Below the pieces are notes generated by a model, which saw nothing but the letters and a program-made list of their open reading frames with translations, did not search any database and was not told the origin of the DNA. The position numbers were made by a program, and so were the translations under genes. This document shows positions 19,801 through 38,902 of a stretch of DNA of 64,000 bases, piece by piece; within the stretch, counting starts at the first letter, position 1; each line of letters opens with the position of its first letter. The DNA is from Oscillospiraceae bacterium (GTDB taxonomy: Bacteria; Bacillota; Clostridia; Oscillospirales; Oscillospiraceae), in the NCBI GenBank assembly GCA_017395085.1, contig JAFPWF010000017.1, positions 1 to 64,000 on the forward strand, given 5' to 3'.

Positions 19801-20093
19801 TTTTTGATCTACTCCTTTTTTTTTAGAGTTTTTTGGAAAGTAAGCACCCTAGGGGAGAGGGTGTTTTCCTTTGGTTGTCATCTTGGATTTCTTCTCATTA
19901 TATGGGCCGGTATAAACGGAATCGACAATTTGTTTTATTTCTCTGTTTGTGAAGCTCATTGTGTTATAAAAAGCGTTATTTGCTGCATATTTGGCGTTTA
20001 ATACAGTAAGAGTATAAATAATAGTCTACTATCTTGTCAACAAGCATTTTGATTAGAATTAGTCCCACTTGACACGCGTGGTATAATATGCCC

Positions 20094-20240: not shown

Positions 20241-20297
20241 GCACCTGTTTGTAGCAGAATCTGAGAGAAAAGGTATTTTAATTGAAAGAAGAAAGAG

Positions 20298-21182: not shown

Positions 21183-21221
21183 AATGATATAATACTTGAG
21201 ATTAGGAAATAGAGTGTTGTA

Positions 21222-21262
21222 ACAAACCGCTCCAGCTGTGTCAGTTGGAGCGGTTTTCTATT
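21222..21262. terminator. bidirectional intrinsic terminator (aaccgctccagctg / gttggagcggtttt)
   Basis: 11-bp stem with flanking A/T runs, between convergent genes. Confidence 0.55.
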
Positions 21263-21290
21263 GTTTTTGTTTGTGGCCGTCTTTTCGCGG

Positions 21291-21845: not shown

Positions 21846-22179
21846 TACGAGCCCCCGAAAATGTGTTCTGCAGATATTTGTTTAAAATCGTATCGATTAT
21901 ACCAGATGGAATGAGGTGTTGGTCAAGGCACAATCGATTGCTTCATATCTTTTCTTGTGCCCTCATTATACTCCGAATATTGTCATTATAATACGACAGG
22001 TTCATCAGAAGGGCTAGAAAATGCTGCAATACGAATCGTCAACATCATAAAAATGATCAAATAATACCTTAGGTGTTCTTAAACAGCGACAACACCTGGG
22101 CTTTTTTCTGTTGCGGGCATTATTAATGCAATGATATAATAAAAAACTAAGAATAACATGGTCTTTTAGGAGAAAAAAG

Positions 22180-23154
22180 ATGGCGAATATGAACCGTTCG
22201 AGAATCTTGTATATTCTGCAAATCCTCCAAGAGGGTTCCGATCAGGAGCATCCGGTCACGATAGTAGAGATTATCACACAGCTCCAGGAACGCTGGGGAA
22301 TTGAGGCATATCGCATCACTGTCCAGAATGATATCGAAGCGCTTGTGGAGGCCGGTTATCCGATTGGCGTTATCAGGTCTACACAGAATAAATACTTTAT
22401 CCAGGAACATCATTTCTCGTTGCCGGAATTGAAACTCTTGGTTGACGCTGTTGCCTCGGGCAAGTTTATAACTCAGAAGAAGAGCCAAGTGTTGACGGTA
22501 AAGTTAACATCGATGACAAGCGTCCATCAAGCTGGTGCTTTGAAGCGCAATATCAGTCTGACAGATCGCGTAAAAACGGAAAATGAGGCCGGCTATGAGA
22601 TTATGGATGCGCTGAACACGGCTATCAATGCCGGCGTCAAAGTTAGTTTTCATTATTATGAGTTTAGTGGTACAAAGCGGCGTAAATTAAAGAATGATGG
22701 GGATCCGTACATTCTCAGTCCGTATACGCTGACCTGGAATGGTGATTTCTATTATGTAGTGGGCTGGTCTGATAAACACGGCAAAGTGGCAGTTTTCCGT
22801 GTGGATCGTATAGATGATACTCCGGTACTTCTGGATGAGCCAGCAGTAAAAAAGCCTAAGGGATATAATATCGGTGCGTTTACAGTGAAGGCCTTTCGGA
22901 TGTTCGACAGCGACCATGTAATGGTATCGCTTCTTTGTGAGAACAGTGCGATGAATACTGTGATAGATCACTTTGGCACAAAGGTGAAACCCAAAGCCGT
23001 AGATGAGGATCACTTCCAGGTAAACGTCGAAGTGTCTGCAAGCCCGACATTTTTCTCTTGGATTTTTGAGTTTGGCGGCATGATAAAGATACTGGGACCC
23101 AACAAGGTTAGAGATCAATACCGGGACATGTTGTGGAGAGCGTTGAAAGACTAG
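22180..23154 (+). CDS. brxR: BrxR-like transcriptional regulator (wHTH + WYL + C-terminal extension)
   Basis: 324 aa with an N-terminal HTH (ILYILQILQEGSDQEHPVTIVEIITQL). Size and architecture match WYL-domain regulators. It sits immediately upstream of a BREX-like operon and has a paralog at 41878. Confidence 0.65.
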   Translation: MANMNRSRILYILQILQEGSDQEHPVTIVEIITQLQERWGIEAYRITVQNDIEALVEAGYPIGVIRSTQNKYFIQEHHFSLPELKLLVDAVASGKFITQKKSQVLTVKLTSMTSVHQAGALKRNISLTDRVKTENEAGYEIMDALNTAINAGVKVSFHYYEFSGTKRRKLKNDGDPYILSPYTLTWNGDFYYVVGWSDKHGKVAVFRVDRIDDTPVLLDEPAVKKPKGYNIGAFTVKAFRMFDSDHVMVSLLCENSAMNTVIDHFGTKVKPKAVDEDHFQVNVEVSASPTFFSWIFEFGGMIKILGPNKVRDQYRDMLWRALKD

Positions 23155-23242
23155 AAGTTTTGTTGCAATCCCACTGTTTTTATAGGTATATCTCATGATA
23201 AAACTTGTTAAACAGTTCTGTGTTTGATATAATATTCAATTA

Positions 23243-26200
23243 GTGTTTTTGAGACTGGATAATGTGAATAAATCCTGGAGAGGCGGGTGGAAGCAAGTGA
23301 AGACAAACAAAGAGCTTTTTGCCGATTGGCTGTCCGAAATAGTTTCATCTTCCCGTGTGCCCGCCTGTTTGAGCGCTATGGATCTGATCCAGGAAATAGG
23401 GCATAAGAAGCATGTTTTCCAGGGAAATATTTATGATATTAAAGATCCCGAGATATCAAGAAAGCTGTTTTATACGATTCTGGAAGATGGATATTTATCC
23501 TTAATGCATAGTGAGAGTAAAAGAACGGTTAAGGATGTTGCCACTCTTTTCCACAAGTATATAAGTGAGAAGAATCCGGCAAGTGAAAAAGAGAAGGCGG
23601 TAAAGGTTGACACTCCTGCCGAGCAAGTTGTACGGCGGGAGAGAACCTACGTTCATGAAGATGTCGAAGAGTTCTATTCCTGGCTCAGCAGGAATGATTC
23701 TCTTTCTGCTACTGAATGCAAATCATTAGTGTCGGCACTGAGAGTCGCGGAACTGTTTGCGCAGGAAAACATTTCCGAGGGACTGGCACTGTTTTCTGAT
23801 GATCCTGATGTTGTCAATAAGACAATAGATTTGCTGTCTCAGGATCCGAACTTTAAAAGGAAGAATGATGAGCGTAAGGGAAGATATTTCATAGCTCTTG
23901 GGATTCTTCGTGCGTTCAATAACAGTAAAGAGAGTAAGGGAAATATGCCTGCAGCATCGAAAGTAGCAGAGGGGCAAGAGCAAATGGAAGATCCACTGCT
24001 GGCTTTAGTGATTAGCAAGGGAATTGAGTATATAGATAATCGGGGTAAAGGCGGTCGCCTCTGGTTAATCGGAGATCTTTCTCTGCGTGATAAAATATTA
24101 GAAATACAGGAAAAGGGCTATCGTTCGTTTTATATAGAGAGAGGGTGCAAGACGACTGGTTTTCGCAGTGCATGGTATGTGGATGTAAAGCCTGGGAGCA
24201 TGTATAAGAAAACAAAGGCTAAAGCTTCCGGTGATGAAAGGAAGAAAAAGGAAGCATCCAAATTACAGAAGCCCGCAGTAGAAAAAACGGCGGAAAAGAA
24301 GCAAAAAAAAGATGTTCTGATTGAACTGCTGAAGAGCAAAGGACTCAAATTTATTGACGACCGAACGAACGGCGGTCCGGTTTGGCTCATAGGGGGATTA
24401 GAACTTCAGGATGTAATAAGAAATCTTCGTGATGAGGGCTATTCTTTCTACTACAGTGTTGCCGGTACCGCAGCTACTGAATATCAAAGCGGCTGGTTTC
24501 TCGTAGAAAAATCGAGTGGTTCAAAAACTGGTTCTAAGCCCGAGGTGGGGAAAAAAGAAGCAGCAAAAAAACAAGGTAAAAGTGCTGCGGCATCGGTTGC
24601 TGCCGGACAGGGTAAGGCGATAAAACCGCAAGTTGCTGAGCAGGCGAAACAGGCTGCTCCGGCTAAGGTGATGTCTCCGAACCTCTGTAAATTGCTTGCC
24701 GATGATGATATGGCCGAATTGCGGGAGGAACTGGCTCGGCAGGGCGTCATCACGATGGATCAGTTTAAGACCGTTTCTCTCTGGCCTTTCTTAAACCGAT
24801 ATACGAATTATAGTATCAGTAAGCGGCAGGATATTATAAAGCGCATCAACAAGCGGCTTTGTAATCCTGCGCCGGTTGATACCTCGACACAATACTGCAT
24901 TAAAACTACAAATGCCAGATATTATGGCAATACGCCAGCGGAAGCTTTCGTAAGTTTCTGCGAGTATCTTGCGCAAAAATACCCTTTGAAAATCCGCACC
25001 TTAATCGGCGCACAGTATAACGGTCAGGGTTCCGTTGTCCTTTACAGGGAAGACCAAAAAGGCAATTCGCCGAGATTGACAAATCCGGTAGCGTACGTAA
25101 ATTCTGATTTGACTGAGCAGGCTGCTTTCCATTATGGCAAGTGGCTCAGTGAAATGTGTGGGGATAAAGACTATCCGGTAGAAGTAAAAAAACCTCGGGT
25201 CATCCCGCAGTACAATGATGTGAATCGGGATGCCGTAAAACAGAGTTCGGCAGCCTCAAAGCAAAAGACCGAACAGCGTGCCGGTTCTGTGAGCAGTTCT
25301 GCTCAAAAAACAAAAGCGACGGGCTCAGCAGCTTCAGCTGTCGCTTCATCCGATCAGGGAACTCAAACGGTAAGCAAAGCCGATATTACCAAGGTGGATC
25401 GTGCTGTTTTAAAAGCTGATCTGTCCGGTATCACAGTTGAAAAACTGAGTGAGAAAACTCAGTTTTCAGTTGCTGCAACGAGAAGAATAGTCGCTGCGGA
25501 TCCGAAGATCGTTCAACTTGGCGACAAGCTGGTGCATGAAAATGCATTTGTCGATTGGGAAGATGGCGCGGACAAGCTGGAAGAGATACTGGAGAAGCTG
25601 CTGGACAGAAATGACGGTTATATATCAGCGGCGAAACTATATGAATATGCGCGCTCCGAGATGTATATGTTCCTGAACGATAACGACATGGACGATGAAG
25701 GGTCAGTTTATGAATTGGCCCGGCATCTTTTTGAAAAAGTCGGCTATCATGGGAAAAAGCTGGTCTTTCAATCTAAGACTCATATTTCCCGCAATGAAGC
25801 TGCAGTTACAAGCGTTGTAGATTTGATCCATAACTTTGCACAGCCGGATGGTGGCTTTTTCCGCGAATCTGAATTGATTGAGTACCTGCAGAGCGTGGGT
25901 GTAAAAACAGGTAATCTGCGCGGCGGTTTGATGAAGGTATACACAGAACCGAGTTTTTTGTTCTATGATGAAGGTGTATTTCTGGAAGCAAAGTGCATCA
26001 GGATGGACGATGCCTGGTTTTCAGAGGTGAAGTCGGCGTTAGATAATTTGTTTAATGATCTTGGCGATCACATTGTAATCCGTGATATCCAGCCCTGGTG
26101 GTTTTATCAGTTGCCTGGGCTTCCCGGGGGAAAACAATGGACTCCGGTTTTGCTCCAGAGTGTATTGTACTTCTTCGGCGACAAGGTCGGTGGGGCGCGG

Positions 26201-26479
26201 ACAATTAAAGGTTTAAGTGGCCAGAGCGGTGACACGATTCATGCGATGTTGGTCAGCAAGGATAGCGAAATACAGACTTTCCCGGATGCGGTAGTGGCAG
26301 TTATAGTTGATGAGGGAATTCAGCAGAGGGATTTTGAGACGGAAGAATTGCGTCAGATTCTGATCAAGCGTGGTATGGTAGCAGGGAACGAACTGCTATA
26401 TACGATGCCCAAGGCGTTGGCTGATGACGGCCGTTTTGCATGGGATGCCGCTGGTCAGCGTGTGGTTGTGAAGGTGTGA
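23243..26479 (+). CDS. large hypothetical protein (1078 aa) with a tandem internal ~65-aa repeat and Lys-rich linkers
   Basis: Repeats KGIEYIDNRGKGGRLWLIGDLSL..GYRSFYIERG and KGLKFIDDRTNGGPVWLIGGLEL..GYSFYYSVAG. No catalytic motif recognised. The start may be the GTG at 23297. Confidence 0.5.
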   Translation: MFLRLDNVNKSWRGGWKQVKTNKELFADWLSEIVSSSRVPACLSAMDLIQEIGHKKHVFQGNIYDIKDPEISRKLFYTILEDGYLSLMHSESKRTVKDVATLFHKYISEKNPASEKEKAVKVDTPAEQVVRRERTYVHEDVEEFYSWLSRNDSLSATECKSLVSALRVAELFAQENISEGLALFSDDPDVVNKTIDLLSQDPNFKRKNDERKGRYFIALGILRAFNNSKESKGNMPAASKVAEGQEQMEDPLLALVISKGIEYIDNRGKGGRLWLIGDLSLRDKILEIQEKGYRSFYIERGCKTTGFRSAWYVDVKPGSMYKKTKAKASGDERKKKEASKLQKPAVEKTAEKKQKKDVLIELLKSKGLKFIDDRTNGGPVWLIGGLELQDVIRNLRDEGYSFYYSVAGTAATEYQSGWFLVEKSSGSKTGSKPEVGKKEAAKKQGKSAAASVAAGQGKAIKPQVAEQAKQAAPAKVMSPNLCKLLADDDMAELREELARQGVITMDQFKTVSLWPFLNRYTNYSISKRQDIIKRINKRLCNPAPVDTSTQYCIKTTNARYYGNTPAEAFVSFCEYLAQKYPLKIRTLIGAQYNGQGSVVLYREDQKGNSPRLTNPVAYVNSDLTEQAAFHYGKWLSEMCGDKDYPVEVKKPRVIPQYNDVNRDAVKQSSAASKQKTEQRAGSVSSSAQKTKATGSAASAVASSDQGTQTVSKADITKVDRAVLKADLSGITVEKLSEKTQFSVAATRRIVAADPKIVQLGDKLVHENAFVDWEDGADKLEEILEKLLDRNDGYISAAKLYEYARSEMYMFLNDNDMDDEGSVYELARHLFEKVGYHGKKLVFQSKTHISRNEAAVTSVVDLIHNFAQPDGGFFRESELIEYLQSVGVKTGNLRGGLMKVYTEPSFLFYDEGVFLEAKCIRMDDAWFSEVKSALDNLFNDLGDHIVIRDIQPWWFYQLPGLPGGKQWTPVLLQSVLYFFGDKVGGARTIKGLSGQSGDTIHAMLVSKDSEIQTFPDAVVAVIVDEGIQQRDFETEELRQILIKRGMVAGNELLYTMPKALADDGRFAWDAAGQRVVVKV

Positions 26480-26482
26480 TCT

Positions 26483-27151
26483 ATGGCTAATGCTAGTTTT
26501 ACAAGAGATGAAGCTATTCTTGCATTAGATGTGCTATATCGTTCTAGTGGGCAACTCCCGTCTGCAAATTCAGAAGAGATCAAAGAGCTTTGCGGAGTAT
26601 TACAAGAACTTCCTATTCATCCGAAAGAGAATCGGAGAGTTGATTTTAGGAATGAGAGTGGTGTGAGAAATCAATTAGCTCTTTTCAAAAAAAGTTTTAA
26701 AAAAGGAGAAAAGGATCCTAACGTTGGAGCTGTCTTTTATTCAATAGCGATCGAATTCGAGAACAATTTGGAAGAATTACATCGAATTGCTAATGGTATT
26801 CGTAAAAACGTGACCTGTTTTAACAACCTGTTTGGTTCCGACTCTGAAGATGAGGGTTTTCCGGAAGGTGTTCTACTTGGTCATGCATATCGTGTGATTG
26901 AAAGAAGAGATGGGAAAAAGTGTAAGCTTGAACAAAGGTGTTCAATTTGCCAGATTGAACCAGATGTAATGTACCAGAAGGGAGATAGAATTCTTGAAGC
27001 TCATCTGATAGTAGATCCCTGTGATATAGTAGTCTCAAAAAAGTATTCAGCGCGTTGCTTTATTACAGTATGCCCAACATGCCACGCTGCATTACATAAG
27101 TATAGACCTTGGTTAAAGAAAAATGATTGTTCAATAATACTCCGCAGATAA
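26483..27151 (+). CDS. HNH-type nuclease domain protein
   Basis: C-terminal CSICQ...EAHLIVDPCD...CPTCHAALHKY matches the Cys-pair plus His HNH arrangement. Coupled to the upstream gene with a 3-nt gap. Confidence 0.45.
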   Translation: MANASFTRDEAILALDVLYRSSGQLPSANSEEIKELCGVLQELPIHPKENRRVDFRNESGVRNQLALFKKSFKKGEKDPNVGAVFYSIAIEFENNLEELHRIANGIRKNVTCFNNLFGSDSEDEGFPEGVLLGHAYRVIERRDGKKCKLEQRCSICQIEPDVMYQKGDRILEAHLIVDPCDIVVSKKYSARCFITVCPTCHAALHKYRPWLKKNDCSIILRR

Positions 27152-27165
27152 AGGAGTGATAACCT

Positions 27166-29487
27166 GTGTACGGATATGAGTGGACTGAAGAGTACGGAAT
27201 ATTCCGTTTAACAATAAATGCCAAAGTTCAGAAAGAGATAAGACCTGTCTTCCATGAGGAACTAGATTTCTTTGGCATGGATCAATTTTGGAATTATCCA
27301 AAAGACACAGCTGCTCCTTTGTTATGGGCAGAAGGTGTTCGTAGATATATTTATAATGGAGAATGTGTAGCGGAGGCACAGGGAGGCGGAATATATAATA
27401 AGCCTAAGATAGTCCGTTATACAGAGGAAAGGCTGCAGTTAAAGCCAGTTGATGTCAATAGACTTTATGAGATCAACGAGCCGTTTATGGTTAGCCTTGA
27501 ACAGAAAGCAATTCATTTTATTCAGGAGCAATATGAAAAGTATAGACTAAAGCAATATGCTTTTATATGTGCTTTCTCAGGTGGTAAAGATTCCATATTA
27601 CTATTAGATCTGATTTCAAAAGCGTTAGCGCCAAGCGACTTCTATGTGGTTTTCAGCAATACAGGAATGGAGCTTAGCGATACATTAGAAGCAATTCGAA
27701 GAGCGCGAATCCATTGGTCAGAGTTGCGCTTTGAAGAGGCAAAATGCCATATGGAACCGACCGAAACATGGAAAGAAATAGGTCCGCCTGCAAGCCATTT
27801 GCGTTGGTGTTGTTCTGTTCATAAATCCGTACCAACTGTGCTGCTGATTCAAAATCTGGTGGGCAGAAACAGTAAAGTAGTTGTTTTTGACGGGGTACGT
27901 GGTGAAGAGAGTATTCGGCGTTCAAGATATGAAGAAGTCGGGGAAGGCGTTAAGAATTCAATCCAAATCAATTGCCATGCAATTTTAAAGTGGTCTTCAG
28001 CTGAAGTATTTATTTATCTGTTAAAGAATCAATTACTTTTTAATGATGCTTATAGACGTGGTATTTATAGGGTTGGTTGCAAAATCTGCCCAATGTCTTC
28101 TAAATGGCAAGATGCTCTAATCGCTGCTAATTATCCAGATGAAGTTGCAGATTCAATTCAACAGTTGGAAGAGATTACGGTTTATGCTAAAGGTCGTCTT
28201 GATAAAAAATACATAGAAGATGGTGGTTGGCAGTCCAGGGTAGGAGGAAAAATACTAAAACAAGGCGAAAACAGGGTACAAGAGGAGATTGATGGAGAAA
28301 AGCTTATCTTCAACTTAGTTCATTCAAGACAGAACTGGTTGGATGTTCTTCCTGTTTTTGGGAATGTTGTCGAGAAAAAAGAAAATGAGTATATGCTTCA
28401 TACAAAACACGGCGTATTTGAAATGGAGTATAGTGATATTGAGGGAACACAGACAATAATAATATCACCGTTTTCAAAGCTAGATCGATATGCCATTGGG
28501 GCATTACGTTCGCTTACAAATAAAACCGCATATTGTATCGGCTGTAATTCTTGTATTCCGCAATGCCCAGTAGGTGCATTTCAAATAATCGACGGAAGAA
28601 TAAAAATAAGAGAGTCCGCATGTATCCATTGTTATAATTGTTGTTATGCAATAGATCGTGGGTGCATGGTTGCAAAGAGTCTACATGTAAAGGGTGATAA
28701 TGTGGCTAATCCAGATAAATACCGCAATTTCGGATTTAGACAGGCATTTTACAGTCATTTTTGTGATAATGGCATCCAATGTTTCGAAATGGAAGTGTTG
28801 GGTAAAGATCAGTATAAAGCACTCAAACAATGGCTTGCTGAAGCAGGTGTATTGAAGAGAACACAAAAAGGGAATAAAGAGATTATCAATGCTGAATTGA
28901 CAGAATTAGGCGATAAACTCATTAGTTTTGGTCCGTATAATCCGTTCCCGTGGTCAATTATGTGGGCTAATCTTGCTTATAATTCTATTGTTTCTCGTAG
29001 TTTTTGCCTTAACGTAGATGTTGGAGAGACCTTTGATAGCGGTTTTCTTGTAAATTGTCTGGATAAGGATGTCGATGAAAAGTATAGAAAACAAGCGGTT
29101 AATTCCTTGTTGTCCACATTTAGAGATTCCCCAATTGGTGGAGCGATAAATCAGGGAATTAGTATTGATAAGAACTTGTATCTTCGCGCTGGTTGGGAGT
29201 ATCCGCATGCGGTGGCTTTGCTTTATGCGTCGTATCTCTATGCGGAGCATACAGGGCGCAGGAGCTTTACATTTACTGAACTGGTGAATGCGAAGAAGAA
29301 CTTCGATGCGCCCGGTATCTCGCCGGCAGATATTTATGCGATTGATGTGAAAAAGTTCCGGGAGATTGTGCAAGGCCTGGCGCTACAGTTTCCGCAGTAT
29401 ATCAGAGTTTCATTTGTGGCAAATCTGGATAATATCATTCTTGAAAAATATAGCTCATTAGAGATACTGGATCTGGCGGAAGAGTAA
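27166..29487 (+). CDS. brxP: BrxP-like PAPS-reductase/PP-loop ATP-pyrophosphatase (DndC-like) fused to a 2x[4Fe-4S] ferredoxin-like domain
   Basis: PP-loop motif SGGKDS (FICAFSGGKDSILLLD). CIGCNSCIPQCP and CIHCYNCCYAIDRGC cluster motifs. 773 aa. GTG start with an AAAGGAG RBS. Confidence 0.7.
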   Translation: MYGYEWTEEYGIFRLTINAKVQKEIRPVFHEELDFFGMDQFWNYPKDTAAPLLWAEGVRRYIYNGECVAEAQGGGIYNKPKIVRYTEERLQLKPVDVNRLYEINEPFMVSLEQKAIHFIQEQYEKYRLKQYAFICAFSGGKDSILLLDLISKALAPSDFYVVFSNTGMELSDTLEAIRRARIHWSELRFEEAKCHMEPTETWKEIGPPASHLRWCCSVHKSVPTVLLIQNLVGRNSKVVVFDGVRGEESIRRSRYEEVGEGVKNSIQINCHAILKWSSAEVFIYLLKNQLLFNDAYRRGIYRVGCKICPMSSKWQDALIAANYPDEVADSIQQLEEITVYAKGRLDKKYIEDGGWQSRVGGKILKQGENRVQEEIDGEKLIFNLVHSRQNWLDVLPVFGNVVEKKENEYMLHTKHGVFEMEYSDIEGTQTIIISPFSKLDRYAIGALRSLTNKTAYCIGCNSCIPQCPVGAFQIIDGRIKIRESACIHCYNCCYAIDRGCMVAKSLHVKGDNVANPDKYRNFGFRQAFYSHFCDNGIQCFEMEVLGKDQYKALKQWLAEAGVLKRTQKGNKEIINAELTELGDKLISFGPYNPFPWSIMWANLAYNSIVSRSFCLNVDVGETFDSGFLVNCLDKDVDEKYRKQAVNSLLSTFRDSPIGGAINQGISIDKNLYLRAGWEYPHAVALLYASYLYAEHTGRRSFTFTELVNAKKNFDAPGISPADIYAIDVKKFREIVQGLALQFPQYIRVSFVANLDNIILEKYSSLEILDLAEE

Positions 29488-29506: not shown

Positions 29507-32500
29507 ATGCCTACTGAAAAATACAACAGTTATCTGGAAATCAATCCGGCATTTGAGTCTGTCGTTGATATTGATGCAGATAAGCGTAATGTCAATTTGT
29601 GGCGGGAGTATATCGTTGGCGATGATATGGTTACGCTGGTGGATTTCCTTTGCCAGTCATTAGGTAATGAAGCGCCGGATCTGCGCCGCTCGTTCTGGAT
29701 CCATGGTTCATATGGTACAGGTAAAAGCTATGCCGCCGTGTTCGTGAAGCATCTGATAGAAGAAAAGCCTGAAGTGATTGATGCTTTTCTTGCCGGTTCC
29801 AGCCGCTTGTCACAGTATAAAAACAGGTTTGCAAAATGCCGTCGTAACGGGGATTATCTTGTCGTTTGGAAAACAGGCTGCACTGGGATCCGTTCCGGGG
29901 ATATGATGTTGCTGGAAGCCGAAAAGGCAATTCAGGATGCTCTTCTCGAGAAGTTCGGTGAGGATGCGAATCTGGGCAGCAGTTCTTTGATGGATGCCGT
30001 TAAAGCAAAGCTTTCTGACCGTACGATCAATTGGGACGTCCTTCTTGAGACAACGGTGTTGGGAGAGGATTATTCCAGCGTGGAAGAACTCCGGCATCTG
30101 GTTGAAGTAGGGGATTTGTCTGCGTTGAAGGCAACTGCATCCGTCATCAGACAGAAAGGTATGGGACTGGTCAACAATCTTGAGACCTTCAAAGCCTGGG
30201 TCAGCGATGTCATTGATGCCAACAATCTTTCAAAGAGCGGTATCTTCTTTATCTGGGATGAATTCACGGAGTATGTAGCGCATAGCGATGATCATACAGT
30301 CATGCAGCAGTTGTCTGAGTTCTGCAAAGAAAAGCCGTTATTTATGTTCTTTGTTGTCCATCGCTCTCAGGAAATGCTGGATAGCATGGGGAATGATCGT
30401 TATCAGATGATTACGCATCGCTTCCATCAGGTTGAATTCCATGTCAGTTCGGATGCGGCATTTGATCTGATTGCCGGTTCTATTACCACGAGAAACGGAA
30501 TGGAAGAGGCATGGAAGGAAGATAGAAAACTGGTCATTAAGACGATCAAGCCCTTCCTGCCGGATATGTCCGGACTGGATGACAAAATCAGTGAACAAAT
30601 AGATACGCTTTGCCCGATGCACCCAATGACAATTCGTTTGTTGTCGCGTGTGGCGGAGAGTTTTGCCGCGGCGCAGAGAACAATGTTCCGTTTCATGAAG
30701 GACCGTTCGAGTAATGAGCATGGCTTCCTGGGCTATATCAACAAATATGGGCCCGACGATCAAGCGTGCTGGCTGACGCCGGATTGGCTCTGGGATTATT
30801 TCTTTACCAGAGAAAGCGATTTCAACGACAAGGATACCAAAGCGGCAGAATTCATCCATCATTATGAAGAGAACCGGCATTTGGTTCAAAATGATGAGAA
30901 TGCTCTCAGAGTTTTTAAGGTATCCATGCTTCTTTTGGCGGTAATGTCATCGACAAAGGGTGTTTATGGCGGCACGAAAACACAGGGCGGCATTTCCTCA
31001 ACCGTTGACTGCCTTGTTAACTGTCTTGCAGGCGTCATGTCTAAAGGTCAGGTGAAAGATCTTCTGGATACGTTGAGCGAGAGCAAGCTCATTCTGCAGG
31101 ATGAGGCCGCAAATGGAGTGGTGCGGCTGCAGCTTCCGTTCCGCGGCGGCAGCGATGATGAATACAAAGTGCGCTATGATGCCAATGATAAGAAGTATAC
31201 ACGGTATCAGATGTTTTCTAAGGACGGCGTTTTTGCCCAGGAGATTGAGAAAAAGTCCTGGGATGAAAATGATGCGGCGTATAAGCGCATGAAGATCTGT
31301 GCCTGCTGTGCAGAGACTAATTCCATCAAGACGAGGCTGGACGAAATTCAAAAGGACCTGGCCAAGTTCCAGTATAAACTTGGGCTTCTCATCGTTACCG
31401 TTCGGGATGAAGCACAGTACATGTCAATTCAGAGCGATCTGGCGCAGCGTTCGCGTGAAATGAATGAACCCCGTCTCATGATTGCTCTTGTCAAGCAGCC
31501 GTTTACGGAGGAGGCTCGGAAGAACTGGCTTAAGAGCCTGACAAAGCAGGAAATTGCTTATGCAAGAGGGCAGACAGCCTCTGGCGGTCAGTATAAACAG
31601 GAAGCGGCATCTGGTATTGCCAGGTGGGTTGGTAGTGCAGTTAGCGGCAGTAAGATTATTGCATGGCATGGCGAACAGGTGTTCAACAACCTGTATGGCA
31701 TGGCACATCTTCGCAAGACGGTCCATACGGCGGTTCTTGAAACGCTTTTCCCGTATGCGCCAGAGAGCGTAGTAGTTACGAATACCGCGTATAAGCCCTG
31801 CAACGATTCGGCACCCGCGGCAGGTATTACCCGTCAGACGAATAATGCCCAGTTGAAGAGCGTGCTGAACAGCCTGAAGACGGCGGGGCTCCTTGATCTT
31901 GTTTCAATAGATAAGATGGCTGAAGCTTCCGGGAGTAAAGCGGCAGATTCTGTCAGCCAGCTTGCGCGCATGATTCGCGATTCAATGCAGTCCGGTCAGA
32001 GGGTCGTTTTGGGCGACCTCTGGGAAAACCTGCAGAAGCCGCCGTTTGGTTATTACAACACCATTGCCTGCGGTGTGCTCCTCGGGTATGTGTTCTCATG
32101 TTACAAAGACAGCGCTTACAGTTGGACGGACAATGCCCAGAGTACGCATGTTTTGGGCGAGAATACACTGAAAACAATGGTCCTGAATATGTGCAAAGGG
32201 ACCATGACCACGGATTATCTGTCTGCCGGTTCCGTCACGTTCCAGAAGTTCCGCGAATATGTGAAAAGAATCCTTCATTTAACGGATGCACAGGTCGCAA
32301 ATGAAACGGAGTGCTGGCATAATATGCGTGAAGCGGTGACTAAAGCAGGCGCTCCGCTTTGGACACTGAAGTATTTGCCGGACATGGGTTACGGCGGGGC
32401 TAACTATAAAGATGCTGCAATGAAGATTATCGACAGCATGCAGCAGTTTATTGCCCAGGAAGGTGATCGCGAAGCTGCCATGAACAGCGTTTTGCAGGAG

Positions 32501-33712
32501 TTTAACGGCCGGGGTAAATTGAGATCATCGCTTGAAAAAGCGTTTCACGACAAGAATGTCATGAACACTGCATTCCGGACATTCCTGTTCACGGTATCTC
32601 CCGAACTGAATGAGATTGCCACAAGGCTTTCAGTACAGCCGGAAGAGTTGAGCGATAAGCTGCATATGGTCATGCAGAATGCGATCTACACATGGACAGA
32701 AGACCAGGTCAAAGAAAAACTACCCGATGTCGTAAGCGATTACAGTTATCTGGATACACTTAATGGAGTGATGGGCAAGGTTTATCACAGCACGGATAGT
32801 GCCAAGAGAGATCTTGTCAATGTGTTCAAATTCCTGCGCATATCGTTGGCAGCGATTAAGAAGACAAATGTTGCGTGGTATCCGGCGTTGGAAATCCTGC
32901 ACAGAGTGTCCCAGAAAGGCACTGCACAGATGACAGCCGAAGAGCGGTCTGCAGAGGTCGAAGTGCTGAAGCAGCATGGGCAAAAAGCATATGATTGCCT
33001 GAAAGATGCCAAGCCCGTTCTTGCGGAAGTGCTGGAGTCCGAGGGGATCGAGTGCACAAAACCGGAACTTGACTCGATTTATGCCAATTTGAAGGACATG
33101 CCCTGTGATGCAAGCCTTTCTCAGTTTGAGAAGGAACTGAAGTCTCAGATTAGTAAGATCAGTCACGCGAGAAATAGGGTACTTCTGAAAGAACGCTGGT
33201 TTATTCTTACAGGTGAAGACAGTGTCAAAAACTGGTGTAAAACTCACAGCGTCCCGCTTCTCTGGATTTTAGAACGCGATCAGCAGAAGGCGGTCAGAAC
33301 ATTGATAGAAGTGCAGAACGGGGAAAGAACTCTGGATCAGAACGTGCAGTTCGCTCTCGAAACTTTGGGCACAATGGATACTTCGATTCTTACAGATAAC
33401 GCCCGGATTGAAAAAGCGTTTATAGAAACTGTCGGTGAAGAGTATAGGAGTATTTACGAGGAAGAGCGTGATGTCCTGATTGCACAGGCGAAAATGAAGT
33501 TTGGCAATGATATGAGCGCCTGGAATATCAGTGATCTTGCGGTTCTTCAGAAAATGCTGAAACAGGCGCAGCAGGAAAAGGCCAAGAAAGAAAAACTGGC
33601 AAAGGCAAAAAGCTACGCGGAGGAAATGGATGCGTCCCTGTTGCGCAATCGTGTTGTTGCCTTCATGGAGAATCATCCGGAGTATTGTGACGACTTTACA
33701 AAAGAGCGGTAA
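29507..33712 (+). CDS. brxC: BrxC/PglY-like large P-loop ATPase
   Basis: Walker A GSYGTGKS near the N-terminus. Walker B-like IFFIWDEF. 1401 aa, typical of BrxC. Confidence 0.65.
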   Translation: MPTEKYNSYLEINPAFESVVDIDADKRNVNLWREYIVGDDMVTLVDFLCQSLGNEAPDLRRSFWIHGSYGTGKSYAAVFVKHLIEEKPEVIDAFLAGSSRLSQYKNRFAKCRRNGDYLVVWKTGCTGIRSGDMMLLEAEKAIQDALLEKFGEDANLGSSSLMDAVKAKLSDRTINWDVLLETTVLGEDYSSVEELRHLVEVGDLSALKATASVIRQKGMGLVNNLETFKAWVSDVIDANNLSKSGIFFIWDEFTEYVAHSDDHTVMQQLSEFCKEKPLFMFFVVHRSQEMLDSMGNDRYQMITHRFHQVEFHVSSDAAFDLIAGSITTRNGMEEAWKEDRKLVIKTIKPFLPDMSGLDDKISEQIDTLCPMHPMTIRLLSRVAESFAAAQRTMFRFMKDRSSNEHGFLGYINKYGPDDQACWLTPDWLWDYFFTRESDFNDKDTKAAEFIHHYEENRHLVQNDENALRVFKVSMLLLAVMSSTKGVYGGTKTQGGISSTVDCLVNCLAGVMSKGQVKDLLDTLSESKLILQDEAANGVVRLQLPFRGGSDDEYKVRYDANDKKYTRYQMFSKDGVFAQEIEKKSWDENDAAYKRMKICACCAETNSIKTRLDEIQKDLAKFQYKLGLLIVTVRDEAQYMSIQSDLAQRSREMNEPRLMIALVKQPFTEEARKNWLKSLTKQEIAYARGQTASGGQYKQEAASGIARWVGSAVSGSKIIAWHGEQVFNNLYGMAHLRKTVHTAVLETLFPYAPESVVVTNTAYKPCNDSAPAAGITRQTNNAQLKSVLNSLKTAGLLDLVSIDKMAEASGSKAADSVSQLARMIRDSMQSGQRVVLGDLWENLQKPPFGYYNTIACGVLLGYVFSCYKDSAYSWTDNAQSTHVLGENTLKTMVLNMCKGTMTTDYLSAGSVTFQKFREYVKRILHLTDAQVANETECWHNMREAVTKAGAPLWTLKYLPDMGYGGANYKDAAMKIIDSMQQFIAQEGDREAAMNSVLQEFNGRGKLRSSLEKAFHDKNVMNTAFRTFLFTVSPELNEIATRLSVQPEELSDKLHMVMQNAIYTWTEDQVKEKLPDVVSDYSYLDTLNGVMGKVYHSTDSAKRDLVNVFKFLRISLAAIKKTNVAWYPALEILHRVSQKGTAQMTAEERSAEVEVLKQHGQKAYDCLKDAKPVLAEVLESEGIECTKPELDSIYANLKDMPCDASLSQFEKELKSQISKISHARNRVLLKERWFILTGEDSVKNWCKTHSVPLLWILERDQQKAVRTLIEVQNGERTLDQNVQFALETLGTMDTSILTDNARIEKAFIETVGEEYRSIYEEERDVLIAQAKMKFGNDMSAWNISDLAVLQKMLKQAQQEKAKKEKLAKAKSYAEEMDASLLRNRVVAFMENHPEYCDDFTKER

Positions 33713-33744
33713 TTCTTATTCCATATTACGAGGGGCGTTTGAGC

Positions 33745-36096
33745 ATGACAGTTGATCAGGTAATTCAAGATTTGATGAAGGAAAAACAGCTCGGTGTTCC
33801 TTCACGTTTCCCTTGTCGGGCCATCATGGTCAAGAACATAGAGGATTATTCTGAGTTGCTTTCCAAACTGAACAGAATCCCGGATGTTTCATTTGTCCTT
33901 TCCGCCGATCTGTTTCCTTCTGCAGATGTTATGCCGCGCTTTGAAAAACTGAGGGATGAAAAATATCGCGATCAGTGGTTGATTCTGCCTGGTGTCAGTG
34001 AGTATCTGCGCCTGTTCAATAAAAGCGAAGCGGATACGCAGCGCTTTGCGAAACTGTGGAATGGCCAGGTGCCGGCAACCAGTAAAGGGAGAATTCTGAT
34101 TCCGTTATGGGGCTGCGAAGCTCAGTGGTATGATAAAGCGCTTCATCTTTGTGAAGATGAACGTCAGCTGGACTATTACTATGATTGCATAAACGAAAAC
34201 TCAGAGGAACAGCATCTCAATCTTACCGTGTTGTCCGGCGAATTCGAACAGTATGTTTTCCAGCTTTCTGCCAGAAACAGCAGTATTTGTTTTGGTTTGC
34301 AGGATTGGTACGATTATTGGGCGGAAGCGGACAGGATTCGTGAAGAGCAGATTTTGCTGACGAAACGGTATGCAACGATCCAGCCTACAAGCGGGAGTAT
34401 TCGGATCCGGGTAATCAGCGACAGCCTCTCGTTTATTCGTGAAAATATGCCTGGTGCAGAGATGCTGGATGATGAAGTGTGTCCAAAACAGGCGCAGGAT
34501 TTGCTGTTTGATTACGCACTTCATGACTGCACGCTGGATGATGCGATTCTGGCAATCCTGAATGCCAACAAGTTCGTGGGCAAAGAAGTTATGAGCAAAT
34601 GGAGCATCATGGGCCATGGAGAAAAGTATCTGGTAGTTCTTTGGCTGAAATTGCACGAAAAAGACGATTATCTTTGCCATTGTGTTTCAAAAGCAAAAAA
34701 TGTAGATGATATCCCGGAACATATCCTGCATGATGTTTTTGGTATGTATCGCACATATCCGAAATGGATCGCCGAGAGCCAGGAACTCGTCAATGCCATG
34801 GGCCTTGAAAGAGATGAGGATTACTTCAAAGCCCTGGATGAAATACCGGCATATGAAGACAGACTTCAGTTTCTTTCTGGGAAGGACAGGAACGACAGGA
34901 TATATTTGCTCAGACTTGTCGGCAAATGGCTCCGCTTGGATTCTGATCAGGTGTTTGCATCAAAGGAACTGGCCAGTATGTATCCGGCTCTTTTTGCCTA
35001 TCTTGATGAGTCCGCTTATGACAGCGATCTGAGCAGATATTTCTCGCTTTATAAGGCCCATAAGCTTGAGAATTCCCTTCCAGAAGATGAAGATTTGTAT
35101 TTCAGCGGTATACAGCCAGAGGATTATGATTTCCGATATGCTCAGCTGAGCAGCGAACTGACAGATGATTGCGTTATTCTCTGGGTCGATGCATTGGGCG
35201 CAGAATGGTTGCCGCTGCTTCTTTCAAAGCTGAAACAGGATAAAAAAGGAAAGATTAAGAAGTACGAGGTGGTACAGGCGACCCTGCCTACGGAAACCTG
35301 CTTCAATGATCAGTGGAATCAGATTGATGCACCGTATAAAAAACTGGATCTTCTGGACAAGTTGGCACATAAAGGCGTGATCGATGAGCCCGATTATTAT
35401 ACCTGTATCGAGGAGCAGCTTTCGTTTGTGTCCGGTATTCAGAGGAAAGTCGATGAGCTCCTGAAAGAATACCACCGTGTCATCATTACCGGCGATCACG
35501 GGACAAGCCGGTTGGCAGCACGCTTCTTCCATAAAAGGAGCGGTGCAAGTGTGCCTCATGGTGCAAAGGTTTGCAGTCATGGTCGCTACTGCCAGATACA
35601 GCCACAGACCGTTCTCACTCAGCCTGATATAGTCCTGGTTAAGGATAAAGCGGGAAATCAGTATGCTGTTTTCAATAATTATGATCATTTTATCCAGTCT
35701 GGTTTTGCAGCTGGTGCCGATGATGATAATGCGATTTACGGTGAAGTTCATGGTGGCGCAACGCCGGAGGAGATGCTGGTTCCGCTTATCGTGTTTGACA
35801 GCAATCAGGAGATTCCTCTAAAGGCTGAATGGCAAAGCAGCATGGTCAAGATCATGGCAAAAAAGGCGAAAGCGACGCTGAAGTTTAATCGCCCGGTAAA
35901 CAGTCTGAATGTTAGGATCGGCGCTGTCTTGGGTACAAGTTCGCAGACAGCCGACAGCAGGGTATGGACTGTTGAGTTCCGGGGGGTTGAACCCAAAACG
36001 CATAATGTCACTGTTGCAGCAAACGGAGCTCTTGTTCAGGTTGAGATGCTGACGATTAAACCGGCGTTGGGTGGCGGAGAAGGAGATCTCCCATGA
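33745..36096 (+). CDS. pglZ: PglZ-domain (alkaline-phosphatase superfamily) protein
   Basis: VILWVDALGAEWLPLL metal-site block and ITGDHGTSR motif, characteristic of PglZ/alkaline-phosphatase fold. 785 aa. Confidence 0.6.
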   Translation: MTVDQVIQDLMKEKQLGVPSRFPCRAIMVKNIEDYSELLSKLNRIPDVSFVLSADLFPSADVMPRFEKLRDEKYRDQWLILPGVSEYLRLFNKSEADTQRFAKLWNGQVPATSKGRILIPLWGCEAQWYDKALHLCEDERQLDYYYDCINENSEEQHLNLTVLSGEFEQYVFQLSARNSSICFGLQDWYDYWAEADRIREEQILLTKRYATIQPTSGSIRIRVISDSLSFIRENMPGAEMLDDEVCPKQAQDLLFDYALHDCTLDDAILAILNANKFVGKEVMSKWSIMGHGEKYLVVLWLKLHEKDDYLCHCVSKAKNVDDIPEHILHDVFGMYRTYPKWIAESQELVNAMGLERDEDYFKALDEIPAYEDRLQFLSGKDRNDRIYLLRLVGKWLRLDSDQVFASKELASMYPALFAYLDESAYDSDLSRYFSLYKAHKLENSLPEDEDLYFSGIQPEDYDFRYAQLSSELTDDCVILWVDALGAEWLPLLLSKLKQDKKGKIKKYEVVQATLPTETCFNDQWNQIDAPYKKLDLLDKLAHKGVIDEPDYYTCIEEQLSFVSGIQRKVDELLKEYHRVIITGDHGTSRLAARFFHKRSGASVPHGAKVCSHGRYCQIQPQTVLTQPDIVLVKDKAGNQYAVFNNYDHFIQSGFAAGADDDNAIYGEVHGGATPEEMLVPLIVFDSNQEIPLKAEWQSSMVKIMAKKAKATLKFNRPVNSLNVRIGAVLGTSSQTADSRVWTVEFRGVEPKTHNVTVAANGALVQVEMLTIKPALGGGEGDLP

Positions 36097-36293
36097 GCAG
36101 GAAAAAGGTATGCTGTGATTGCGGCAGGTCGTTAAAAAAAGATGAAGTTGCGCTGACGAAGAAGCTGATTGATATCGATTCGGAAGAATTCTATTGCTTG
36201 GATTGTATGGCCGATTTTATCGGTTGTTCGGTTCAGGATCTGAAAGAAAAAATTCAGGAATTCAAAGAGCAGGGTTGCACCCTGTTCCTGTGA
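36093..36293 (+). CDS. small zinc-ribbon protein, translationally coupled to pglZ
   Basis: 66 aa. CCDCGRS...YCLDCM. The start overlaps the pglZ stop. Confidence 0.4.
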   Translation: MSRKKVCCDCGRSLKKDEVALTKKLIDIDSEEFYCLDCMADFIGCSVQDLKEKIQEFKEQGCTLFL

Positions 36294-36305: not shown

Positions 36306-37766
36306 ATGCTGGAAGATAAAGTCAGGGAAGTATTTGCTGATATGATTGTTTTGAAAGACCCGCAACGCAGCGAGTATTTTTCAAATCTCAGTATTCCCTC
36401 ATATATGCGCGATTGGCTGGTCATGAAGTTTTCGGATGAAGACGGTTCGATTGACTACGACAGCGTTCGTCGTTATATCAAGCGGTACATTCCGAGTCGT
36501 GAGGACTTCGAGCAGTACAAGTTCCAGATGGTAAATGGTGAAATTGTTCAGTTTCTTGCCCGTGTTCGTGTTTCTGTCGATGTTAAGCGTGGTAAGACAA
36601 TGTTTGAACTGCCGGATTTCGGCGGTTCAAGAGGCGGTGCTGCCGGTGTCGTTGCTTATGATGTGGCTGAAGAGTGGCAGGAAACGCTGCTCCGCGAGAG
36701 CGAAAACTGGGGTATTGTCACATTATCCTGGGTTATGGAGGGGACACCATCCAATCCAAAGGGCGTTATCAGCATGGTAGATTACAGGCCGTTCTGCCCG
36801 TATTCAGTTGATCTGGAAGTTTATCGCGAAGCCCGGCGTGAATTTGACATTCATGAGTGGATTGATACGGTAATCCGGGCTGTGGATTATAATCCGGACG
36901 GTTACTGCGACAAGGATGGCAATGTGAGCGAGGAGACAAAGCTCTTCTTTCTGAGAAGGCTTCTGCCGTTTGTTGAGAAACGGGTTAACTTGATTGAGCT
37001 TGCTCCAAAAGGCACAGGCAAAAGCTACGTTTTTGAAAAAATCAGCAAACGCGGCTGGCTGATCAGCGGTGGTACTGTATCAAGGGCGTCTCTCATTTAT
37101 GATAATGCCAAGAAAACCGGCGGGTTGCTGACACGATTTGATTATGTCGGCTTTGATGAAGTGCAGTCCATCACATTTGAGCAGCCAGGTCAGATCCAAC
37201 AGGCGTTGAAACACTATATGGAATTTGGCGAGATTAAAGGCTTCGATGCCATGCTAACGGCGGATGCGGGCGTTATTGTTCTTGGCAACATTAACGCAGA
37301 TCGCTTTGATATCAATAAAAACATGGTTGAGCATATCAGTGATGTGTTTGGTGAATCTGCAACCTTGGACCGTTTCCACGGGTTTATCCCTGGATGGGAG
37401 ATCCCGAGAATGACTACGGGGATGATCGCCAAAGGCTGGGCGATTAATACGGAATATTTCGCAGAAGTGATGCATGCGCTTCGGGATGATCTGAGTTACG
37501 CGGCTATTGTGGATGAGCTGATTGATTATCCCTCAAACGCAGATAAACGCCATATGACCGCAATTAAACGTCTGTGCACTGCTTTTATGAAGCTTTTGTT
37601 CCCGCATGTTCAATCGGTAGAGGATATTGATAAGCAGGACTTTATCAAGTATTGTCTGAATCCCGCTATAGAGATGCGGTCGGTTATCTACAGGCAGCTC
37701 TGCATTATCGATCCGAAAGAATATAATGTGAAAAGCAAGCAGATACCTGAAGTTGTTTGTGTGTGA
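36306..37766 (+). CDS. brxL: BrxL-like AAA+ ATPase (N-domain + ATPase; appears to lack a Lon-protease-like C-terminal domain)
   Basis: N-terminal MLEDKVREVFADMIVLKD..YMRDWLVMKF resembles the BrxL N-terminus. Walker A APKGTGKS. Walker B YVGFDEVQS. Only 486 aa. Confidence 0.5.
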   Translation: MLEDKVREVFADMIVLKDPQRSEYFSNLSIPSYMRDWLVMKFSDEDGSIDYDSVRRYIKRYIPSREDFEQYKFQMVNGEIVQFLARVRVSVDVKRGKTMFELPDFGGSRGGAAGVVAYDVAEEWQETLLRESENWGIVTLSWVMEGTPSNPKGVISMVDYRPFCPYSVDLEVYREARREFDIHEWIDTVIRAVDYNPDGYCDKDGNVSEETKLFFLRRLLPFVEKRVNLIELAPKGTGKSYVFEKISKRGWLISGGTVSRASLIYDNAKKTGGLLTRFDYVGFDEVQSITFEQPGQIQQALKHYMEFGEIKGFDAMLTADAGVIVLGNINADRFDINKNMVEHISDVFGESATLDRFHGFIPGWEIPRMTTGMIAKGWAINTEYFAEVMHALRDDLSYAAIVDELIDYPSNADKRHMTAIKRLCTAFMKLLFPHVQSVEDIDKQDFIKYCLNPAIEMRSVIYRQLCIIDPKEYNVKSKQIPEVVCV

Positions 37767-37786: not shown

Positions 37787-38902
37787 TTGATTTATGCTGA
37801 CAACGCGGCCACAACAAGAATGGATCTTGCCGCTTATCATGCTATGCAGTCCTGGCTTCAGGTAGAATACGGGAATGCATCGCAGCCGTATTCTTATGCC
37901 CGGAAACCGAAACAGGCGCTTGCAAATGCACGGGAGATCATAGCGGCTTGTATCAACGCTCAACCGGATGAGATATATTTCACTTCCGGTGGAACGGAAA
38001 GCGATAACTGGGTGATTAAAAGTTCGGCTTTCTCTGATCCGGATCATCGTGAGACAATAACGACAGCTTTCGAGCATCATGCTGTTTTGAATTCGTGCGC
38101 GGTGATTGAGCGGCTGGGGTATCCGGTTTCTTATCTTATGCCAGATGAAAGTGGCAAGGTGTTGCCGGAGGCTCTCAGGGCTAAAATCACAGACAGGACC
38201 AGACTTGTTTCCGTCATGTTCGCGAATAATGAGATCGGGAGCATTCAACCGATTCGCGAGTTGTGTTCCGTGGCGCATGAGCATGGCGCGTTGTTCCATA
38301 CCGATGCGGTGCAGGCTGTAGGGCATGTGAAGATTGATGTCAAAGAACTGGGAGTTGATTTTCTCTCTTCTTCCGCTCATAAATTCAATGGCCCGAAGGG
38401 AATAGGTTTTCTCTATATTCGCAACGGCGCTGATTTACTGCCCTACATGGACGGCGGTGCGCAGGAAAAGAAGCATCGTGCAGGGACAGAAAACATTGCT
38501 GCAATATCGGGTATGGCGGAAGCATTAAAGGGAAATTGTGAGTACATGGAGCAGAATGAGGAACACATACGCGGTCTGGAAACCATGATCCTTAATGCCC
38601 TCTCAGCTGCCGGCGTTCGGTTTCAACGCAACGGCGGGGATTATACTCTGCCGGGGTTGATGAGTTTGTCATTCCCCGGGTTTTCAGGTGAAGCGATTCT
38701 TCACAGGATGGATTTGATGGGGATTTGCATATCAACCGGGTCGGCTTGCGACAGTGTAAATACGGAGATTTCTCATGTACTGAGGGCCATTAATCTGGAA
38801 GACTCCCTGGCAACGGGGACAGTTCGAATCTCGCTGGGCAAGTTCAATACAGTTGAAGATGCTGCTAGGATTTCTGAGTCGCTGATCAGAATCGTAAAGT
38901 AA
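37787..38902 (+). CDS. cysteine desulfurase (class V aminotransferase, NifS/IscS/DndA-like)
   Basis: IYADNAATT..., FTSGGTESDN, PLP-lysine region SSAHKFNGPKGIGFLY, and active-site Cys region GSAC. 371 aa. Confidence 0.8.
   Translation: MIYADNAATTRMDLAAYHAMQSWLQVEYGNASQPYSYARKPKQALANAREIIAACINAQPDEIYFTSGGTESDNWVIKSSAFSDPDHRETITTAFEHHAVLNSCAVIERLGYPVSYLMPDESGKVLPEALRAKITDRTRLVSVMFANNEIGSIQPIRELCSVAHEHGALFHTDAVQAVGHVKIDVKELGVDFLSSSAHKFNGPKGIGFLYIRNGADLLPYMDGGAQEKKHRAGTENIAAISGMAEALKGNCEYMEQNEEHIRGLETMILNALSAAGVRFQRNGGDYTLPGLMSLSFPGFSGEAILHRMDLMGICISTGSACDSVNTEISHVLRAINLEDSLATGTVRISLGKFNTVEDAARISESLIRIVK

Follow-up and report, generated by a model that had tools for sequence, protein, structure and literature searches.

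A BREX type 4 operon headed by a large protein

The window analysed here is a stretch of 64,000 nucleotides (nt) from an Oscillospiraceae genome. It holds a bacteriophage exclusion (BREX) type 4, or phosphorothioate, operon within a low-GC defence island, and the subject of this work is the large protein encoded at the head of that operon, together with the small HNH-like gene that follows it. An original prediction, made from the sequence alone, had described two open reading frames (ORFs) of 1078 and 222 amino acids (aa) with a 3-nt separation. Both are present as described: the large ORF (23243-26479, + strand, 1078 aa counted from a GTG) ends with TGA at 26477-26479 and the ATG of the next gene is at 26483. 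The placement at the head of a BREX operon was likewise borne out by the genes for BrxP, BrxC, a type-4 PglZ and BrxL downstream, so that all four defining BREX type 4 genes (brxP, brxC, pglZ and brxL) are present in the window. The main elements are as follows.

23205..23233, + strand: promoter-like site TTGTTA-17 nt-(TG)TATAAT (10/12 consensus matches, extended -10 TG; a consensus match only)
23297..26479, + strand: probable true coding sequence of the large protein (1060 aa)
26483..27151, + strand: 222-aa protein with a homeodomain-like helical N-terminus (aa 1-145) and a divergent HNH (beta-beta-alpha-metal) domain (aa ~150-210)
27166..29487, + strand: BrxP, with PAPS reductase, Fe-S region and DUF4007-like C-terminus (PADLOC BrxP 7.2e-207, residues 1-763; Pfam PAPS_reduct 2.4e-22)
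29507..33712, + strand: BrxC/PglY ATPase (PADLOC BrxC 1.7e-62)
33739..36096, + strand: type-4 PglZ (NCBIfam NF033445 BREX-4 PglZ, 266.8 bits, cut-off 140)
36306..37766, + strand: BrxL (TIGR02688, 409 bits, cut-off 329; PADLOC BrxL 1.2e-186)

Loci related to this one were located with an alignment of the C-terminal domain of the large protein (the C domain, residues 707-1078), the full-length family alignment being too diverse. In bacterial genomes sampled at one per species (GTDB), the search returned 23 loci, all from Bacillota (Oscillospiraceae, Acutalibacteraceae, Christensenellaceae, Lachnospiraceae, Peptostreptococcaceae, Veillonellaceae and others). BrxP, BrxC, PglZ and BrxL are encoded directly 3' of the large gene in all 20 genomic loci with downstream DNA. 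A reverse search from BrxP (47-79% identity) yielded 80 metagenomic loci, and the C domain lies directly 5' of brxP, on the same strand, in 77 of the 77 with upstream DNA. Divergent members of the family, with C domains of 29-36% identity and lengths of 596, 1644 and 1722 aa, occupy the same BREX-4 context. The position had been predicted to be that of a BREX accessory or specificity factor, filled by a pair of genes; the large gene does behave as an accessory or core factor specific to this system (5' of brxP in 20/20 and 77/77 loci), but the pair does not hold, as the HNH gene is missing from 8/20 and 43/77.

Three IMG/VR contigs classed as viral (L118-L120, 56-76 kb) carry the large protein, the 222-aa gene, BrxP, BrxC and PglZ in the same order, which suggests that the BREX-4 operon can travel on prophages or other mobile elements. 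At the R. bicirculans locus (L001), an integrase gene also lies ~6 kb 5' of the large gene.

The length of 1078 aa is correct for the ORF and probably not for the protein. The promoter-like site ends 10 nt before GTG 23243, which leaves no room for a ribosome-binding site there. The database copy of the protein (P0001) is 1060 aa long, is 100% identical and begins MKTNKE, and the N-termini of homologues align to residue 20 of the 1078-aa ORF. From the promoter position, the length of P0001 and the homologue N-termini, the true start is most probably GTG 23297, giving 1060 aa; GGAGAGG/GGAAG lies 5' of this codon. Residue numbers in this text are those of the 1078-aa ORF. The large gene, the 222-aa gene and brxP, with spacings of 3 and 14 nt, have one common upstream promoter-like site. 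A motif, (A/T)TGATATAAT(A), repeats at 21176-21194, 22123-22141 and 23222-23233, 5' of a WYL-domain regulator gene and of the large gene; these sites may be extended -10 promoters or a common operator of the WYL regulator.

Modules and family of the large protein

The large protein had been described as unknown, and it indeed gave no match in Pfam, NCBIfam, PHROG or PDB sequences and has no recognisable enzyme domain; Pfam gave no P-loop or helicase match to the window protein. Searches of PDB sequences with the large protein, the 222-aa protein and a profile of the repeat domain returned nothing meaningful. A structure was predicted with AlphaFold2 using the family alignment (mean predicted local distance difference test score, pLDDT, of 80 for the full-length model and ~97 over the C domain). 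The protein was divided into the following parts.

23300..23593, + strand: module N1, helical bundle (aa 20-117; five helices, block-mean pLDDT mostly 94-97)
23657..23935, + strand: module N2, helical bundle, integrase SAM-like (core-binding-like; aa 139-231; five helices, block-mean pLDDT 43-79)
23987..24190, + strand: repeat 1, ZorC-C-terminal-domain-like alpha/beta (aa 249-316; block-mean pLDDT ~81-92)
24191..24307, + strand: Lys-rich disordered linker (aa 317-355; pLDDT <50; 33% Lys, net charge +9)
24308..24511, + strand: repeat 2, ZorC-C-terminal-domain-like (aa 356-423; pLDDT 94-97; PADLOC ZorC PDLC00613, E=6.3e-7)
24512..24658, + strand: Lys/Ala-rich disordered linker (aa 424-472; pLDDT <50; 20% Lys, net charge +7)
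24659..25207, + strand: modules M1 (aa 473-540, helical) and M2 (aa 541-655, alpha/beta), pLDDT 79-97
25208..25360, + strand: Ser/Ala/Lys-rich disordered linker (aa 656-706; pLDDT <50), an apparent recombination boundary
25361..26479, + strand: family-defining acidic C domain of about five consecutive winged-helix-like units (aa 707-1078)

The two ~65-aa repeats are genuine and not a product of low complexity. Residues 248-313 and 356-421 align without gaps with 26/65 identities (40%; BLASTP E=2e-18), and in the model they are folded units (block-mean pLDDT ~81-97) joined by linkers that are Lys-rich, as had been noted, and disordered. At the DNA level the repeats are too diverged to be visible. 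When instances of the repeat domain from across the family were isolated, 19/31 matched PADLOC ZorC (E<=0.01; best 2.8e-6). N1 and N2 have an 'F..WL' pattern in common; N1 stands at the N-terminus of 13/149 family representatives, while N2 occurs in 18/149 and also in the R. bicirculans homologue. A few family members match Pfam Phage_int_SAM_1/4/5 (E 1e-6 to 6e-5, given without positions in the proteins), and from the sequences these matches would belong to N1/N2-type modules. M1 and M2 matched no known family.

An exhaustive HMMER search over 1.84 billion representatives identified 722 relatives of the large protein at E<=1e-3, among them 221 at E<=1e-30. When the 1078-aa query was used in a word-indexed homology search, only the protein itself was returned, the Lys-rich linkers probably having filled the candidate list, and the same type of search with the repeat-domain profile returned two short fragments only. 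Family proteins range from ~500 to 2088 aa, and what they have in common is the C-terminal ~370 residues (707-1078), present in 141/149 of the best representatives. The repeats, put forward in the original prediction as the hallmark of the protein, are instead a facultative module found in ~40/149 representatives, mostly as a single copy. M1 occurs in 70/149 and M2 in 69/149, the latter in up to seven copies. The C-terminal region in turn had been described as having no recognisable motifs; it is the most strongly conserved part of the protein and the one that defines the family. It carries a net charge of -16, against strongly basic linkers. Near-invariant residues include P958, W966, Q972, F1013, D1062 and W1067, and invariant polar residues comprise H765, D771, N812-D813-N814, K832, R947, Q972, D1015, R1037, D1062 and R1064.

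The N-terminal parts vary independently of this domain. The C domains of L016 and of L109 and L013 are 82% identical and their N-terminal parts are without detectable similarity, from which it follows that heads are swapped at the linker that precedes this domain. A shufflon or inverted-repeat origin of the diversity found no support, as positions 19000-27300 hold only short chance repeats. In three relatives of 1585-1722 aa (P0136, P0258 and P0259) an N-terminal superfamily 1 (SF1) helicase (UvrD/AAA_19) is fused to the same C domain, and the helicase-bearing P0259 (L032:301-5469) sits in a BREX-4 operon.

The HNH-like gene and the surrounding island

The 222-aa protein has 179 close homologues of ~221 aa in Clostridia, and an identical copy is on record from an Oscillospiraceae metagenome-assembled genome. 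The Cys/His signature ascribed to it was confirmed: C153, C156, H174, C197, C200, H201 and H205 show no or almost no variation across 59 homologues. Both CxxC motifs (C153/C156 and C197/C200) and the beta-beta-alpha core are present, the AlphaFold2 model placing strands at 172-175 and 193-196 and a helix at 198-206. Pfam HNH (PF01844) gave no match to the protein even at E<=10. Over its full length, the protein is homologous (25-30% identity) to ~230-aa 'HNH endonuclease' genes that do match PF01844 and lie in restriction islands of diverse bacteria, and alignment of the two families with hhalign gave a probability of 99.95% (E=1e-38). In a Foldseek comparison of the model with the PDB, HNH enzymes topped the list, none of them significant (best E=0.25); EcoKMcrA, TagI, VcaM4I, Cap5 and Gme HNH were among these weak matches, and no SRA or sulfur-binding-domain structure was among the structural matches listed, which gave the idea of an SBD- or SRA-type phosphorothioate-dependent enzyme no support from structure.

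The prediction of an HNH nuclease is upheld as regards homology, but only in part as regards the active site. In EcoKMcrA (PMC6182155), the metal ligands are H228, H252 and H256, the nucleophile is activated by H229 (H229A is inactive), and N243 is structural. Both hhalign and an ungapped MAFFT alignment match the canonical E-x-H-H to [E/Q]-x-H174-L175, which pairs H174 with the metal ligand H228 and places the invariant Leu175 at the nucleophile-activator position. In each of 120 family members checked, the HH position reads H-L. The invariant H201 and H205 correspond to the metal ligands H252 and H256. The Asn/Asp site five residues before the second CxxC is variable (C, D, R, S, K and others), whereas Asp is invariant there in the canonical relatives. 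The HNH motif is thus incomplete in part, because Leu175 replaces the activator His and the Asn/Asp is not conserved. As judged from these alignments, the 222-aa family appears to keep the zinc site and the three metal-ligand His residues (H174, H201 and H205) while lacking both the activator His and a conserved Asn, and the protein probably has no nuclease activity, or one that is non-canonical.

Inserted between the large gene and brxP, the gene is facultative and would not be needed for the core function of the system. It is present in 11/20 genomic loci, reduced to a remnant covering residues 1-55 only in one more (L016), and absent from the other eight; among the metagenomic loci it is present in 34/77 and absent from 43/77. 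In the latter set, the distance between the large gene and brxP is mostly 21-58 nt where the HNH gene is missing (346-575 nt in three loci) and mostly ~690-711 nt where it is present (larger in two loci). The loci with unusual gaps (346-575 nt or ~970-1200 nt) are L055, L093, L104, L078 and L100, and these gaps may contain remnants of the HNH gene or other small genes inserted there. In R. bicirculans, the small HNH gene lies directly 3' of the gene for a 1137-aa homologue of the large protein, and one copy of it was found in 842 blocks of a public assembly collection. Homologues of the 222-aa protein also stand alone in unrelated restriction-modification islands on plasmids.

The remaining genes of the operon and its flanks are the following.

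22180..23154, + strand: WYL/WCX-domain regulator, BrxR-like, immediately 5' of the large gene (Pfam WYL 6.4e-13, WCX 9.6e-6)
36093..36293, + strand: 66-aa Cys-rich zinc-finger-like ORF (CCDC...CLDC), overlapping the PglZ stop by 4 nt
37787..38902, + strand: DndA/NifS-like cysteine desulfurase (PADLOC DndA 2e-123, SspA 3e-123)

WYL genes are also found 5' of the large gene in loci L007 and L018, and a gene of 65-66 aa occupies the position of the Cys-rich ORF in L001 (R. bicirculans) and L005. A comparative study (NAR 2026, PMC12839542) reports a small zinc-finger protein as a further BREX-4 component, which the 66-aa ORF probably represents, and proposes a cysteine desulfurase as a sixth component.

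The GC content is 41-50% across the island (~12-42 kb) and 54-62% in its flanks, and the GC skew changes sign; both features would fit a defence island gained by horizontal transfer. The 64-kb window is devoid of tRNA genes, and plasmid searches with the DNA of the region and with the C domain gave no matches. At the left edge of the island (11718-14429, + strand) lies the gene for a candidate TIR-type defence effector of 903 aa, which combines TPR repeats with a TIR domain (Pfam TIR_2, 3.9e-11) and has DUF6273 at its C-terminus (4.9e-28). It is followed at 14764-18261 (+ strand) by genes for a DUF2971 protein, a 611-aa SPFH/Band-7 protein with double zinc ribbons and a YbjQ-domain protein, a run that may be another defence or stress module of the island. 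Right after the cysteine desulfurase, 38925-41843 (+ strand) encodes a 360-aa RuvB_N-like AAA+ ATPase, a 464-aa protein with a DnaJ (J-domain) match whose gene overlaps that of the ATPase, and then a HIRAN-domain protein of 160 aa, and 3' of the HIRAN gene lies that of a second WYL/WCX regulator (41860-42801); this group may be part of the BREX-4 operon or a system of its own. The right edge of the island (42837-44863) holds genes for a LexA-like protein (Peptidase_S24 and winged helix) and a Peptidase_M78 (IrrE-like) protein, beyond which a sigma-70 gene is found at 46110-47024.

Interpretation and comparison with known systems

BREX type 4 is reported to write phosphorothioates in Bacteroides, where BrxP together with BrxC is enough (Yuan et al. 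2026, PMC12914056); mcrA, brxZ and brxL of B. salyersiae are dispensable for phosphorothioation, and the modification and phage exclusion by BREX type 4 have been demonstrated in Bacteroides systems only. Since BrxP and BrxC suffice for phosphorothioation there, the large subunit is likelier to act in targeting, sensing or restriction than in sulfur chemistry. The explanation that we favour, to which we would give about an even chance, is that the large protein is a dedicated non-catalytic subunit of BREX-4, in a clade centred on Clostridia, with such a role, composed of a winged-helix dock and an exchangeable DNA-engaging head. The constant acidic winged-helix array at the C-terminus would most likely dock onto the BREX-4 core (BrxP, BrxC, PglZ or BrxL), leaving the exchangeable N-terminal head to engage DNA. 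In the window protein, this head would comprise the two SAM-like bundles, the two ZorC-C-terminal-like domains on their Lys-rich tethers, and M1 and M2; relatives carry other sets of modules or an SF1 UvrD-type helicase in its place. The linkage to the BREX-4 genes, the lack of an enzyme signature and the modularity of the family speak for this explanation, and DNA engagement is suggested by the ZorC-C-terminal match, the SAM-like Pfam matches and the basic linkers. The 222-aa gene is a diverged member of a widespread endonuclease family with the plan 'helical DNA-binding domain + HNH'.

Several points weigh against this explanation. The 77 metagenomic loci are redundant, many of them being near-identical contigs, and all of the loci are relatives of this clade, a scope that excludes Bacteroides and other BREX-4 systems. 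The division into dock and head was drawn from charge and conservation only, and winged-helix arrays are able to bind DNA, RNA or protein. The invariant polar residues of the C domain could form an unrecognised active site. As for the loss of nuclease activity, eight members of the 222-aa family have H-H-L, and a register shift of one residue would make H174 the activator; under that shift the preceding metal-ligand position would be unconserved.

Among the alternatives, one that we regard as unlikely but worth keeping in view is that the variable N-terminal modules recognise phage-encoded factors or features of phage DNA (e.g. anti-BREX DNA mimics) and thereby activate the BREX-4 core. Such a sensor or decoy would match a plan that recurs in defence systems, in which variable sensor domains are attached to a constant core; it is also favoured by the complete replacement of N-terminal parts between relatives with 82% identical C domains and by the shuffling and repetition of modules across the family. 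The modules, however, resemble generic nucleic-acid-binding or helicase modules and not protein-recognition domains, and there is no known phage partner. This alternative also overlaps with the dock-and-head explanation, of which it is possibly a special case.

It is rather improbable that the protein is not part of the machine at all and instead controls how strongly the BREX-4 operon is expressed or how toxic it is, either as a regulator acting at or after transcription or as a silencer associated with the chromosome. Nearly all of its domains are of winged-helix or other DNA-binding types and its gene adjoins that of the WYL regulator at the head of the operon, as would be expected. A length of 600-2000 aa and helicase-bearing variants would be atypical of a regulator, a dedicated WYL/BrxR-type regulator is already there, and the part under conservation is the acidic C domain and not the DNA-reading head.

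We give little credence to a two-component modification-sensing restriction enzyme, essentially the view taken in the original prediction, in which the large protein recognises DNA and the 222-aa HNH protein cuts it as an auxiliary effector on BREX. The 3-nt spacing of the genes and the HNH fold and metal ligands of the smaller protein favour it. There is also precedent in two papers, HNH auxiliary effectors being reported across BREX (PMC12839542) and an mcrA gene being embedded in the B. salyersiae BREX-4 operon (PMC12914056). Yet the HNH gene is absent from 8/20 genomic and 43/77 metagenomic loci that retain the large gene, an invariant Leu stands in place of the activator His, the Asn has been lost, and relatives of the small protein are found by themselves in unrelated plasmid restriction-modification islands. 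A further proposal, for which we see a similarly slender chance, is that phosphorothioate BREX has in the large protein its missing subunit for targeting or sensing, the winged-helix dock plugging exchangeable heads into the core and the heads deciding which DNA is foreign, and that the nuclease-dead HNH has been repurposed as a self/non-self reader of the backbone or of phosphorothioate sulfur. A three-His metal site without a catalytic base would then bind the backbone, and possibly the thiophilic phosphorothioate sulfur. Finally, it is very improbable that the C domain is a cryptic enzyme (nuclease, or sulfur- or nucleotide-handling) of a fold variant beyond the recognition of the searches, although its near-invariant polar residues (H765, D771, NDN 812-814, K832, R947, D1015, D1062 and R1064) and its conservation, far above that of the remainder of the protein, would suit one.

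Phosphorothioate writing by BREX type 4 was shown only recently and only in Bacteroides. In the type 4 systems that are common in gut Clostridia there is a further large subunit, linked to them in every case and named by no annotation resource. On the dock-and-head explanation, a constant dock with swappable heads and occasional helicase fusions would offer a handle on how DNA is found, and would supply natural chimeras for the study of specificity. The helicase-fused members would be a helicase component of BREX type 4, one that is not listed in the available parts of the BREX-4 papers. The 'HNH nuclease' annotated in these operons is probably without canonical DNA cutting, which matters if it is assumed to be the restriction effector.

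With respect to known systems, BREX type 4 itself has been described before, and so have the WYL regulator, the cysteine desulfurase, the small zinc-finger ORF and the occurrence of an HNH gene within operons of this type. To the known set the window adds a large multi-winged-helix protein, present in every Clostridial locus examined; neither a large protein at the operon head nor a multi-winged-helix component is described in the available parts of PMC12914056 or PMC12839542. In B. salyersiae, mcrA lies between brxP and brxC, whereas here the HNH gene stands before brxP (a comparison of position). With EcoKMcrA, the 222-aa protein shares its Cys4 zinc site and its three His metal ligands; it differs from HNH enzymes of the EcoKMcrA/TagI/ScoMcrA type in the Leu at the activator His and the unconserved Asn/Asp. 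The ~230-aa HNH family has the N-terminal W.RDE.ILALDLY...FRN.NGV domain.

Compared by role and domain content, the large protein would resemble BrxHI/BrxHII and BrxA-like proteins as a large DNA-engaging accessory subunit of a BREX operon. An SF1 helicase head is found on some members of the family, but the window protein is without a helicase or ATPase motif. A paralogous relationship of the C domain to BrxA/DUF4007 was rejected, since hhalign against an alignment of the BrxP C-terminus gave a probability of 1.1%. Single units of the C domain superpose on tandem winged-helix scaffolds (SelB C-terminus, ScpB, TFIIIC tau138 and ESCRT-II), with 54-156 residues aligned and a high root-mean-square deviation when the alignment is longer; the five-unit arrangement as a whole gave no structural match, and there is no sequence relationship to these scaffolds.

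The repeat domain matches profile positions ~480-560 of 570 in the PADLOC models of ZorC, a component of type I Zorya. In E. coli ZorC, residues 487-560 form a globular domain, carried on a long linker, and this domain is required for binding double-stranded DNA and for defence (PMC11946911). Tethering by a flexible linker is common to both proteins. Only this small C-terminal domain is held in common, however, and here it is duplicated inside a different protein; the large protein gave no match to the EH-signature core of ZorC, and no Zorya genes accompany it. Apparently new are the protein family, the strictness with which it is linked to the Clostridial BREX-4 clade, the design of a constant dock with variable heads, among them the ZorC-C-terminal-like domain and the helicase variants, and the degenerate active site of the HNH protein.

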